A stretch of 64,000 nt of DNA from a virus (taxonomy: Duplodnaviria > Heunggongvirae > Uroviricota > Caudoviricetes), in the IMG/VR virus record IMGVR_UViG_3300033075_001761. The stretch is one strand, 5' to 3'. Below are positions 26,606 to 29,552 of this stretch, piece after piece. The notes under the pieces were generated by a model. It did no database searches and was not told the origin of the DNA. It was given only the letters and a program-made list of their open reading frames with translations. Within the stretch, counting starts at the first letter, position 1. The number at the start of each line of letters is the position of its first letter. A program made the translations under genes and the position numbers.

Positions 26606-27598
26606 ATGATTCTTGTTTTTGGCTCGAAAGGCCAGCTTGGTAAAAGGATGTGCCAAAACCTAGAATCACTTGGGTTGGATTTTTGTTCTTTAAGCAGAGA
26701 TGATTTTGACTTTGAGGATTTGTTGCTTGTTAGAAAAGCGATTTCAGAAATTAGGCCAGAAGTTATTTTAAACTGCGTTGGCTATACAAATGTAGCCATG
26801 GCAGAAAAAGAACGCGAAAAGGCCATGTACCTGAATGCAGTTATCCCAAGGGTTTTGTGCGAAGAGCAGAAGAAGCATTTTGGGTGTGTCGTTCATTTTT
26901 CTACGGACTATGTGTTTGATGGAGAAAAAGAAGAGCCTTATTTAGAAACAGATTCTCCGAATCCAATAAATTATTACGGATATACAAAATTAGAGGGTGA
27001 GAACTTAGTTAAAGCATCCAGAACTCCATATTTAATCTTTAGAATTGGATGGGTTTATTCTTCTGACGATACTTCTTTTGTGATGAGAGTATCAAAAAAG
27101 TTGGCCATGGAAGACGGTGCAAAGGTTGTTATTGATCAGGTGGGCACTCCGAACTCAGCCGACTGGGTGGCGTTTCAGGTGTGTAGTTTGCTGTATAATT
27201 ATAGGAAAGACATGTGTTCTTTTGTTGCGGCAAAAAAAGGTGTTTATCATTTGTCAGCAAGTGGCAGTTGTTCGTGGTATGATTTTGCGCTTAAAATTTC
27301 GTCAATACTTCCAAGAACAAACAATAAAGTCAGAGAAGTTGGCGTTTTGTTTTCTTGTGATGGAATTTTTGGAAATCTTAAAAGACCATTGTTTTCTGTT
27401 TTAGATAACCAGAAGTCTAAATCTTTGCTCAGATTAGAAATTCCAGATTGGGAGATCTTGTTTAGAGAAACAATGACAGAGCATTTAGAATCTATGCAGA
27501 TAGCCGACAAAAAAATTGTTCGGAAATTAATCATTCCTCCATGGCAGGAAGAAAAGAAAAAAATTAAAAAAAGGAAAAGAAAATGGCGAAGCAAGTAG
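26606..27598 (+). CDS. rmlD: dTDP-4-dehydrorhamnose reductase family (RmlD-like NAD(P)H 4-ketoreductase)
   Basis: ILVFGSKGQLG Rossmann motif, YYGYTK (YxxxK), RmlD-like length. Lys/Arg-rich C-terminal tail overlaps the next gene. No RmlC is present, so the sugar product is uncertain. Confidence 0.55.
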   Translation: MILVFGSKGQLGKRMCQNLESLGLDFCSLSRDDFDFEDLLLVRKAISEIRPEVILNCVGYTNVAMAEKEREKAMYLNAVIPRVLCEEQKKHFGCVVHFSTDYVFDGEKEEPYLETDSPNPINYYGYTKLEGENLVKASRTPYLIFRIGWVYSSDDTSFVMRVSKKLAMEDGAKVVIDQVGTPNSADWVAFQVCSLLYNYRKDMCSFVAAKKGVYHLSASGSCSWYDFALKISSILPRTNNKVREVGVLFSCDGIFGNLKRPLFSVLDNQKSKSLLRLEIPDWEILFRETMTEHLESMQIADKKIVRKLIIPPWQEEKKKIKKRKRKWRSK

Positions 27599-28686
27599 CC
27601 GATACGTACTTAATTACTGGCGGGCTAGGGTTTATTGCCAGCAATTTTATTTTAGACTTATGCTCAAAAGAATCCCCAGTCATAGTAAATATTGATTTGA
27701 TGACCTATGCGGCAAGCAGATCGAACCTGAAGGGCCTTAAGAATCATGGGTATCACTTAAAAATTATAGACATTGGCAATGAATATCATGTTGCCAAGAT
27801 ACTTAAGCAATACAAGCCAAATATAATTGTAAATTTTGCATCAGAATCACATGTAGATAATTCAATTGATGGACCTGAGGCTTTTTTAAAGCACAACGTA
27901 GTTTCTCATTTTAATTTCATAAAGGCTTGTTCTGATTATTTTCAAAAGCTTTCAGACCAAGACAAGGCCAGGTTTAAGTTTCTTCACGTAAACACAGATG
28001 AGGTTTACGGTTCTTTAAAAAAAGACGAACCACCATTTCATGAAGGCATGAAGTTTCAAACAAATTCTATCTACTCAGCAACAAAAGCTTGTCAGAGTCA
28101 TTTTTTAAGAGCTTTTCATGAGACATGGAAGTTTCCGTATATGGAAACGCATTGTTCAAACAACTATGGTCCAAGGCAGCACAAAGAAAAGCTGATTCCA
28201 AAAACAATTATAAACGCATGGATGGATAGGCCAATTCCTGTTTACGGGACTGGAACCAACGTCAGAGATTGGATTCATGTTAGCGATCACTGCTCTGCGC
28301 TTAGTCACATTTTGAAGAACGGAAAAAACGGTCATTCGTATAATATTGGCGCAGAAAACGAGATCTCAAATATTGAAATTGTGAATATGATTTGTGAGAT
28401 CGTTGATAGGCATAAGGGTGTTGAGCCGTCTTCTAAAAAGTCTTCTAAGAATTTGATTAAATTTGTTGAGGACAGAAAAGGCCATGATTTCAGGTATGCA
28501 ATCGACAATAGAAAAATTTATTCTGAAATTAAATGGATTCCTTTAAAAAAGTTCCACTCAGGTCTAGAAGAGACTGTTTCTTGGTACTTAAAAAATGTTG
28601 TACCAACAGAAATGCAGGTTCCAGTAAAGTTTCCTCAAGAAGAAGAAATTCATGAAGATACTATTGAAGAAGGGGAAGAAGAATGA
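27583..28686 (+). CDS. rmlB: dTDP-glucose 4,6-dehydratase
   Basis: YLITGGLGFIASNF (GxxGxxG) and YSATKACQSHF (YxxxK). Collinear with RmlB. Confidence 0.7.
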   Translation: MAKQVADTYLITGGLGFIASNFILDLCSKESPVIVNIDLMTYAASRSNLKGLKNHGYHLKIIDIGNEYHVAKILKQYKPNIIVNFASESHVDNSIDGPEAFLKHNVVSHFNFIKACSDYFQKLSDQDKARFKFLHVNTDEVYGSLKKDEPPFHEGMKFQTNSIYSATKACQSHFLRAFHETWKFPYMETHCSNNYGPRQHKEKLIPKTIINAWMDRPIPVYGTGTNVRDWIHVSDHCSALSHILKNGKNGHSYNIGAENEISNIEIVNMICEIVDRHKGVEPSSKKSSKNLIKFVEDRKGHDFRYAIDNRKIYSEIKWIPLKKFHSGLEETVSWYLKNVVPTEMQVPVKFPQEEEIHEDTIEEGEEE

Positions 28687-29552
28687 AGGGTCTTATCTTA
28701 TTGGGCGGAACGGGGTCTAGGCTTTGGCCTATTACAAAATCTGTTAATAAAGCCCTTCTACCTTTGTATTCAAAGCCAAGTTGTTATTATTCTCTGTCAA
28801 TTTTGATGTTGGCTAAAATAAGAGAGATCGCAATTATAACAACTCCGAATGATGTATCTAGCTTTATGAATTTGTTTGGAGATGGAAGTAAGTGGGGTTG
28901 TGATTTTTCTTATATAGTTCAAGAAAATCCAGAAGGCATTGCGCAAGCGTTTCATCTTGGGAAAGACTTTTGCAAAGAAGAATCGTCATGCTTGGTTCTT
29001 GGCGATAATTTTTTCTACGGCCATCATTTCCAAGATTTCCTTTTGTCAGCCAAAGATCATACTGAAGCTACAGAGGAAGCATGTATTTTCGGATATAAAG
29101 TTCCAGATCCAGAGCGATATGGAGTTGTGTTGATGAATGAAGAGGGCGTGGCCATTGATTTAGAAGAAAAGCCAATTGCTCCAAAATCTCCATATGCGGT
29201 TCCTGGAATTTATTTTTTCCCAAGCGGAGTATGTGAAGAAGCAAAAAAACTGTCCCCATCTAGGCGCGGAGAATATGAGATTACAGATTTAAATCGCGTT
29301 TATATGAACAATAAAAAAATGCGATGTAAAATCATGAGCAGAGGGATTAGCTGGTTTGACACAGGAACCCCTGATTCATTGATGGAGGCATCTTCTTTTG
29401 TTCAAGCAATTGAAAAAAGGCAGAGCATATTAGTATGCTCTCCTGAAGAAATTGCATACAGGAATGGATGGATTACCAGAAAAGAAGTCTCCATTTTGGC
29501 TAGAGAATTAAAATTAAATACATATGCGAGTTTATTAGATCAAATTGAGTAG
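28683..29552 (+). CDS. rmlA: glucose-1-phosphate thymidylyltransferase
   Basis: MKGLILLGGTGSRLWPITKSVNKALLPLYSKP matches the RmlA N-terminal signature nearly residue for residue. Confidence 0.7.
   Translation: MKGLILLGGTGSRLWPITKSVNKALLPLYSKPSCYYSLSILMLAKIREIAIITTPNDVSSFMNLFGDGSKWGCDFSYIVQENPEGIAQAFHLGKDFCKEESSCLVLGDNFFYGHHFQDFLLSAKDHTEATEEACIFGYKVPDPERYGVVLMNEEGVAIDLEEKPIAPKSPYAVPGIYFFPSGVCEEAKKLSPSRRGEYEITDLNRVYMNNKKMRCKIMSRGISWFDTGTPDSLMEASSFVQAIEKRQSILVCSPEEIAYRNGWITRKEVSILARELKLNTYASLLDQIE

Follow-up and report, generated by a model that had tools for sequence, protein, structure and literature searches.

An rmlD-rmlB-rmlA operon and a distal aminotransferase, acetyltransferase and glycosyltransferase block as a candidate nucleotide-sugar toolkit of an uncultured myovirus

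The stretch of tailed-phage DNA analyzed in this study (64,000 nt of the IMG/VR virus record IMGVR_UViG_3300033075_001761; below, the window) carries, at positions 26606-29552, three adjacent open reading frames (ORFs) on the plus strand, encoding, in this order, RmlD, RmlB and RmlA, i.e. enzymes of deoxythymidine diphosphate (dTDP)-sugar synthesis. The gene content of the window marks it as phage DNA (contractile-tail tube protein, DnaB-type helicase, primase, ResIII helicase, RecA, RuvC, ThyX, dUTPase, amidase and RNA ligase, among others), and the phage is an uncultured, lytic-type myovirus with a T4-type portal. Judging by the portal, its closest cultured phages are Microcystis phage Mel-JY01 (31.5% identity) and Flavobacterium phage immuto (30.7%). 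Identical proteins were found on Logan contigs from SRR32380200/201 and on a 129,001-bp JGI contig, and the window together with its two flanks (L002 and L003) gives a coverage of about 82 of 129 kb. When the 102 non-overlapping window ORFs with a length of at least 50 amino acids (aa) were scanned with Pfam, no integrase family was detected in the window, as the original prediction, made from the sequence alone, had also stated.

Each of the three Rml proteins scores above the equivalog cut-off of its NCBIfam model (RmlD narrowly) and retains its motifs, which confirms the earlier identification of RmlA, RmlB and RmlD-like genes at this place; the genes are indeed consecutive, while their order is D-B-A and not A-B-D, as first described. 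The RmlB translation shows GGLGFIASNF, NTDEVYG and YSATK, corresponding to the catalytic motifs GxxGxxG, TDE and YxxxK, and this protein is the sole 4,6-dehydratase in view. The nucleotide-binding signature of RmlA enzymes (G-G-x-G-(T/S)-R-L) is present in the N-terminal part of the phage RmlA (LLGGTGSRLWPIT). Since the genes overlap by 16 nt (rmlD/rmlB) and 4 nt (rmlB/rmlA, ATGA), they form a compact operon. Their guanine-cytosine (GC) content is 0.36-0.38 (window mean 0.377), and they are located between RecA/RuvC on one side and nucleotide-metabolism genes on the other. The RmlA is 49-53% identical to RmlA of phAPEC8-like phages, and the best non-phage homologues of the rml proteins share only 36-41% identity with them. 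At the nucleotide level, a megablast search of the operon against 50,697 phage records gave no match, and a scan for promoters and terminators in the 24-32 kb region of the window produced no signal above shuffled controls.

The solved structures closest to the phage RmlD are all bacterial RmlDs (1vl0 with an E-value of 3e-41, 3sc6 and 1kbz), and in the alignment with these three the STDYVFDG, YGYTK and DQVGTP motifs are retained. A comparison with 117 mostly bacterial RmlD homologues revealed 69 positions conserved in at least 85% of the sequences, 58 of which, including the catalytic T/Y/K residues, are kept in the phage protein. Lineage-specific changes are found at strongly conserved positions (e.g. 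D64A and T183N), and the C-terminus is a lineage-specific basic tail of about 35 aa. As far as can be judged from these sequence features, the window reductase is a canonical RmlD. The substrate of RmlD is the product of the 3,5-epimerase RmlC, not the D-gluco 4-keto sugar. A bifunctional 3,5-epimerase/4-reductase (plant NRS/ER or Mimivirus L780 type) was considered and rejected, as the PDB matches with E-values up to 1e-5 are all bacterial RmlD or MAT2B and the residue two positions past the catalytic Thr of the window protein is Tyr (STDY, RmlD-like). Bifunctional NRS/ER enzymes have Cys at that position, and Cys/Lys is their acid-base pair of epimerization.

No complete RmlABCD set (RmlC alongside RmlA, RmlB and RmlD) is seen across the approximately 82 of 129 kb. 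The Pfam scan of the 102 window ORFs revealed no RmlC (PF00908), FdtA or cupin domain. A phmmer search (--max) of the window, L002 and L003, each translated in six frames into segments of at least 30 aa, with the phAPEC8 and muut RmlCs as queries gave a best E-value of only 0.015, and a blastp search of the same three sequences with RmlC from a relative belonging to the window phage's own lineage gave no match. The earlier statement that RmlC is missing from the window is thus correct, and it also applies to both flanks. When the lineage's own RmlC was compared with 5.8 billion proteins, in a search that depends on shared 5-residue words, 3 matches were obtained, none of them on a 129,001-bp contig, which hints at the absence of this RmlC from the contig. 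The genes flanking the operon were tested as cryptic epimerases and rejected, because both co-occur with a true RmlC in relatives and, moreover, the predicted structure of the 133-aa flanking protein is a small barrel of the SH3/Tudor-like type. The remaining ~47 kb of the contig, located between the portal and tail-fibre genes, are probably mostly structural.

In this phage lineage, the interval between the 133-aa and a 205-aa gene (26591-29555) is a hypervariable slot within the replication/recombination module. A 4.6-kb Logan contig (L007) shares the gene order of the window, with 43-59% identity for its RuvC, 336-aa gene, BppU_N-like gene and 128-aa homologue of the 133-aa gene, and its slot contains RmlD (42% identical to that of the window) followed by RmlB (47%). 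As the divergence of these rml genes equals that of the flanking core genes, the rml genes appear to be old and maintained in the lineage and not a recent cargo. In a more distant collinear relative (a 37.6-kb contig found in several samples; L009-L012 and L019), the same slot is occupied by two small ORFs and RmlC alone, and a separate RmlB-like gene is encoded 14 kb downstream. The slot is empty in L016-L018 and filled with other, unrelated small ORFs in L015, while L014, an IMG/VR contig of 160 kb, has an RmlA-like gene just upstream of the 133-aa homologue. Weak but consistent homologues of the 205-aa gene directly follow the 133-aa gene in L016-L018 and RmlC in L010. Furthermore, an unrelated IMG/VR contig (L004) carries RmlD-RmlB-RmlA in the same order, following a dCMP deaminase and with glycosyltransferases nearby, and no RmlC was found within its 20.8 kb.

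Since partial rml sets in a variable slot are the rule in this lineage, the missing RmlC may reflect accessory-gene mosaicism and be host-dependent, and since relatives hold RmlC alone in the same slot, 3,5-epimerized sugars seem to be within the repertoire of the lineage. Judging from these gene arrangements, the absence of RmlC is better read as mosaicism than as different reductase chemistry, and the partial rml sets are probably completed by the host. The original prediction had considered L-rhamnose an unlikely product; the canonical character of the reductase and the relatives with RmlC in the same slot speak against that view.

A second set of genes potentially involved in sugar metabolism is located distally. 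One of them (56819-57877) encodes a divergent DegT-family aminotransferase, whose best solved relative in a single-sequence search is Mimivirus L136 (7mfo, 1.3e-11). Its pyridoxal phosphate (PLP) lysine aligns with that of L136 (SFHATK vs SFHHTK; the 7mfp mutant chain has Ala there) and is invariant (K183) in a 20-sequence alignment of the family, the profile of which ranks the uncharacterized 3ju7 first, then DesI (4e-49) and then L136 (1.5e-37). Both DesI and L136 aminate the nucleoside diphosphate (NDP)-sugar NDP-4-keto-6-deoxy-D-glucose at C-4, which yields viosamine (PMC4691112). From this relationship, the product of 56819-57877 is likely a dTDP-viosamine synthase. Its family is rare: of 1.84 billion proteins searched, only 11 representatives reach E<1e-30, and the DesI/L136-like family has 1219 representatives. 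In sequenced phages, a close homologue of this gene is almost absent (one weak match).

The preceding gene (56245-56847) encodes an acetyltransferase with Pfam matches to Hexapep (1.8e-07) and, weakly, PglD_N (0.0039). Its best PDB match is VioB (7txp, 1e-23), followed by WeeI-like, PglB, PglD and PerB proteins, and the last three all acetylate 4-amino-4,6-dideoxyhexoses. Downstream of the aminotransferase lie genes for a GT2-family glycosyltransferase (weak NCBIfam matches to the polysaccharide glycosyltransferases EpsD, TuaG, WcaA and PglI), a GNAT acetyltransferase and a GT-B-like glycosyltransferase, the C-terminal ~170 aa of which have no assignment. The other DegT aminotransferase (50909-52072) gave NCBIfam scores of 208 bits for PseC and 178 bits for ArnB, both far under the cut-offs, and its best PDB match is of the ArnB type (4lc3, 1.8e-36). 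A pseudaminic/legionaminic acid pathway involving this aminotransferase and the GNAT protein was rejected, given the PseC and PseH scores, which fall well short of the respective cut-offs, and the absence of PseB/G/I/F genes from the window. All distal genes named in the original prediction are real (Table 1), including the putative glycosyltransferase at 17793, which is recognized by PHROG only. The proposed route from the RmlB product through an aminotransferase and an acetyltransferase to viosamine or N-acetylviosamine (Qui4NAc) is upheld for the pair 56819-57877 and 56245-56847, with L136/DesI and VioB as the closest relatives and the PLP lysine kept, while DegT 50909 and GNAT 58779, also assigned to it, were not tied to dTDP-sugars by any test performed here.

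Table 1 Genes of the rml slot and of the distal sugar block, with the window flanks
Feature	Position	Strand	Length	Matches and remarks
Putative glycosyltransferase, paralogue class of 59238	17793..18926	+	377 aa	PHROG 7162 glycosyltransferase 1.4e-22; no Pfam match
Conserved lineage gene	26190..26591	+	133 aa	Upstream edge of the variable slot; not a pathway gene
RmlD (dTDP-4-dehydrorhamnose reductase)	26606..27598	+	330 aa	TIGR01214 230.5 bits (cut-off 224.05); Pfam RmlD_sub_bind 1e-69
RmlB (dTDP-glucose 4,6-dehydratase)	27583..28686	+	367 aa	TIGR01181 371 bits (cut-off 365.1); Pfam GDP_Man_Dehyd 2.7e-64
RmlA (glucose-1-phosphate thymidylyltransferase)	28683..29552	+	289 aa	TIGR01207 376 bits (cut-off 360.65), residues 2-287 on profile positions 1-283 of 286; Pfam NTP_transferase 5.6e-64
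205-aa gene	29555..30172	+	205 aa	Downstream edge of the variable slot
DegT sugar aminotransferase, ArnB/PseC-like	50909..52072	+	387 aa	Pfam DegT 6.7e-70
N-acetyltransferase for 4-amino-4,6-dideoxyhexoses, VioB/PglD class	56245..56847	+	200 aa	TIGR03570; VioB 7txp
Divergent DegT aminotransferase, DesI/L136 type	56819..57877 (start as in L003; longest ORF from 56768)	+	352 aa	Pfam DegT 3e-15
GT2-family glycosyltransferase	57877..58782	+	301 aa	Pfam Glycos_transf_2 1.3e-11
GNAT acetyltransferase	58779..59225	+	148 aa	Pfam Acetyltransf_1 8.2e-14; weak PseH-like and RimI-like matches
GT-B-like glycosyltransferase	59238..60731	+	497 aa	Pfam Glyco_trans_1_2 1.2e-07; PHROG 7162 glycosyltransferase 4.9e-08
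L002	~8 kb upstream flank of the window			Tail-fibre-like genes
L003	~10 kb downstream flank of the window			1488-aa intein-bearing gene, T4-type portal, large structural gene

Taking these data together, the interpretation we favour, with a probability of roughly 0.55 for the whole, is that the phage carries a two-branch accessory nucleotide-sugar/glycosylation toolkit placed in two parts of its genome, i.e. rmlD-rmlB-rmlA in the hypervariable slot and the distal aminotransferase, acetyltransferase and glycosyltransferase block. RmlA and RmlB, whose activities are predicted from their homology, would convert glucose-1-phosphate and dTTP into dTDP-4-keto-6-deoxy-D-glucose and raise the pool of this intermediate, which would then have two fates. 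In branch A, fully phage-encoded, the aminotransferase 56819-57877 would make dTDP-viosamine, the VioB-type acetyltransferase would convert it into dTDP-Qui4NAc, and the GT2 and GT-B enzymes of the same operon would transfer Qui4NAc. These steps are proposed because of the nearest characterized homologues, because the genes are neighbours and because no second 4,6-dehydratase is in view. In branch B, the canonical RmlD would finish dTDP-L-rhamnose (or 6-deoxy-L-talose), and the necessary 3,5-epimerase might be supplied by the host RmlC or by a gene in the remaining ~47 kb. The branch leading to viosamine and Qui4NAc, suggested by remote homology and pathway logic, is the best-supported part of this interpretation. 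As for the sugar acceptor, there are two realistic candidates, namely the host envelope polysaccharide and a virion or other phage protein.

Several observations weigh against this interpretation. A distance of 27 kb separates the rml operon from the aminotransferase block and only pathway logic links the two functionally, the supply of RmlC by the host is an assumption, and the sequence behind the whole proposal amounts to about 82 of the 129 kb of the genome. The aminotransferase 56819-57877 is only ~25% identical to L136, and its best NCBIfam model, DesI (TIGR04427), was matched with 46 bits against a cut-off of 650; with such values, the C-4 stereochemistry could be that of viosamine or of 4-amino-fucose, and the carrier could be dTDP or uridine diphosphate (UDP). 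Similarly, the acetyltransferase, which aligns over its full length with TIGR03570 (NeuD/PglB/VioB), scores 139.3 bits, below the cut-off of 160.8.

Other explanations of the incomplete rml set concern the epimerase and the reductase. It is possible, if somewhat unlikely, that an RmlC gene is located in the remaining ~47 kb of the genome and that the phage makes dTDP-L-rhamnose autonomously, as annotated for phAPEC8-like phages, which is compatible with the favoured two-branch toolkit. The partial coverage of the genome, the scattering of rml genes in a relative (where RmlC and the RmlB-like gene are 14 kb apart) and the existence of RmlC in the gene pool of the lineage all allow for it, but none of the 3 matches to the lineage RmlC, found by shared 5-residue words, falls on a 129,001-bp contig, the remaining region between the portal and tail-fibre genes is probably occupied mostly by structural genes, and other viral D-B-A clusters (L004 and L007) likewise lack an adjacent RmlC. 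That last feature, i.e. the recurrence of the D-B-A order without a neighbouring RmlC in L007 and in the unrelated L004, could also mean, as could the lack of RmlC in ~82 kb, that the RmlD-family protein acts without an epimerase and converts dTDP-4-keto-6-deoxy-D-glucose directly to D-quinovose or D-fucose, with no L-rhamnose being made; the few departures of the lineage from the bacterial RmlD consensus (e.g. Asp64 to Ala and Thr183 to Asn) would fit such a change. We regard this as quite unlikely, as the protein passes the RmlD equivalog cut-off, has true RmlDs as its closest solved relatives and intact catalytic and sugar-contact motifs, and as relatives encode RmlC in the same slot. Salmonella RmlD needs RmlC, and, to our knowledge, the characterized D-fucose/D-quinovose 4-ketoreductases (Fcd type) are classified outside RmlD.

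The position of the operon raises the question of whether the dTDP-sugars could glycosylate the phage DNA as an anti-restriction hypermodification. The rml genes lie between RecA/RuvC and nucleotide-metabolism genes, those of L004 follow a dCMP deaminase, and Olsen et al. (2020; PMC7552041), who described the rml location in E. coli phages as 'peculiar', speculated about DNA glycosylation for the phapecoctavirus rml cluster, which is also placed among DNA-metabolism genes. For the window phage this is improbable: the Pfam scan detected neither a dCMP/dUMP hydroxymethylase nor a T4-type DNA glucosyltransferase family in the window, the ThyX and dUTPase encoded there point to ordinary thymidine, and the GT2 and GT-B enzymes look like glycosyltransferases that act on polysaccharides or proteins. 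We also know of no DNA modification that uses dTDP-sugars. Finally, the variable content of the slot among relatives would fit the view that the rml genes are inert, recently captured host cargo without a role in infection, yet their frames are intact with all catalytic motifs, the operon is compact and overlapping with a phage-like composition, the best non-phage homologues are no more than 36-41% identical, and L007 keeps the gene order at 42-47% identity with its core genes equally diverged, so that we consider this extremely unlikely.

Compared with known systems, the favoured two-branch toolkit is a variant of the sugar toolkits already known from Mimivirus and from phages of E. coli and Flavobacterium; it does not amount to a system of a new type. 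What is new is the combination of bacterial RmlA/B/D, an L136/DesI-type aminotransferase, a VioB-type acetyltransferase and glycosyltransferases, whose components, like the general phenomenon, are themselves already known. A survey has reported that the rml pathway occurs in bacteriophages. Two virulent phages of E. coli, phAPEC8 and muut, have a complete annotated rmlB-rmlA-rmlC-rmlD set next to ribonucleotide reductase and glutaredoxin genes (PMC7552041). The original suggestion that such a pathway is unusual in a lytic phage was therefore overstated, all the more so as the Flavobacterium phage immuto has a larger glycosylation block than the window phage. The Stephanstirmvirinae E. coli myoviruses (phAPEC8, muut and other phi92-like phages) resemble the window phage in being virulent-type myoviruses with bacterial-type dTDP-sugar enzymes in the DNA-metabolism region, with RmlB showing 41% identity (in addition to the RmlA similarity given above). 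They differ in that phAPEC8 and muut have all four genes in the order B-A-C-D and no aminotransferase or acetyltransferase genes in the rml regions examined, whereas the window phage has the order D-B-A, no RmlC in ~82 kb and an added viosamine-type branch.

Flavobacterium phage vB_FspM_immuto (Immutovirus, 160 kb), which the portal comparison places among the nearest cultured relatives, is a myovirus of lytic type. Its glycosylation genes are clustered in an 11-kb block, where several glycosyltransferases are encoded together with a methyltransferase, two DegT (WecE-like) aminotransferases and an acetyltransferase of the PglB/VioB class, which shares 34% identity with that of the window. It apparently lacks RmlA and RmlD, since Flavobacterium does not appear in the organism lists of tblastn searches of the phage collection with these two proteins. 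The window phage has a smaller glycosylation block than immuto, but its own first two pathway steps. Of the bacterial systems, the dTDP-N-acetylviosamine pathway (RmlA, RmlB, VioA and VioB; O-antigens of E. coli O7 and Shigella dysenteriae 7, and the flagellin glycan of Pseudomonas syringae) has the same predicted enzyme sequence and shares the acetyltransferase class with the window, VioB being the best solved match. The P. syringae glycan contains both rhamnose and viosamine, as cited in PMC8184846. In contrast to the bacterial pathway, the window aminotransferase is a member of the DesI/L136 branch rather than a typical VioA, and the genes are split over two phage modules, without a Wzx/Wzy or flagellin context.

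The two-branch logic starting from an NDP-4-keto-6-deoxy-D-glucose node is also found in Mimivirus, where one product of the R141 dehydratase feeds L780 (UDP-L-Rha) and L136/L142 (UDP-Vio4NAc), both for the fibrils (PMC4691112). The likeness extends to the aminotransferase, for which L136 is the best single-sequence solved relative, and to the clustering of an N-acetyltransferase and several glycosyltransferases with it. Mimivirus, however, uses UDP-sugars, a eukaryote-type dehydratase and a bifunctional epimerase/reductase, whereas the window phage has bacterial RmlA and RmlB and a monofunctional RmlD; the Mimivirus sugars go to virion fibrils, while in the window phage a virion protein is one of the candidate acceptors. 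We consider it unlikely that the phage is a bacterial-virus counterpart of Mimivirus in the full sense, i.e. with a self-made rhamnose/N-acetylviosamine glycan on its virion proteins and an aminotransferase of the rare DesI/L136 branch. If this were true, L136-type viosamine synthesis would circulate among viruses of bacteria and eukaryotes, and a tailed phage would be able to decorate its particle with a self-synthesized bacterial-type sugar.

Several other features were observed around the sugar genes. At the position syntenic with window 17793-18926, contig L010 (1-2313) encodes a fusion of at least 774 aa with GT2, methyltransferase and GT9 (heptosyltransferase-like) domains, and for this reason glycosylation genes appear to be recurrent yet variable in the lineage. 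Between the DegT/amidase genes and the acetyltransferase/aminotransferase/glycosyltransferase operon there is a block on the opposite strand (53464-54552 and 54633-55886), which codes for an RNA ligase (PHA02142 OB-fold and RNA_ligase) and a 417-aa protein without a family match, and across which (53464-55886) the GC skew falls to about 0. Right after the glycosyltransferase block, a 190-aa ORF (61423-61995) contains the ...ITNPPFSL... motif typical of N6-adenine/N4-cytosine DNA methyltransferases, with no Pfam or NCBIfam match at E <=0.01. The window also encodes (33627-33995) a 4'-phosphopantetheinyl transferase similar to holo-ACP synthases (Pfam ACPS 5e-05; several NCBIfam AcpS models, up to 7e-12), which could relate to N-acylation of an amino sugar; no acyl carrier protein was detected in the window.

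In the structural regions, a 1488-aa ORF starts at 62284, runs to the end of the window (64000) and continues into L003 (10862-15328). It has an HNH endonuclease domain in addition to two domains for intein splicing (Pfam MJ0330_N, Intein_splicing x2 and HNH_3) and sits just upstream of genes for an RRM-domain protein and the T4-type portal. A 378-aa ORF of the tail-fibre region (7943-9079) has long glycine-rich runs (GGGGGGGAG...) and no family match, and may encode a fibre or spike protein. A 105-aa ORF (36701-37018) gave a sub-threshold match to the Acb2/Tad1 hairpin domain (PF24729, 1.4e-05, 25.6 bits vs a cut-off of 27), and its product is a possible anti-CBASS/Thoeris nucleotide sponge by this resemblance.

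The rml genes of E. coli phages have been noticed for years and their role is still puzzling, and in this respect the window phage provides a cleaner test case. It combines the entry steps (RmlA and RmlB), a dTDP-N-acetylviosamine branch that is complete on paper and has its own transferases, and an incomplete branch with RmlD without RmlC. The series of contents of one slot in its relatives (RmlD-B-A, RmlC alone or nothing) could make it possible to separate virion decoration, host-surface remodelling and control of the dTDP-sugar pool. Should the glycan prove to decorate the particle, an environmental myovirus lineage would join the giant viruses and the mycobacteriophages as a case of autonomous viral glycosylation.

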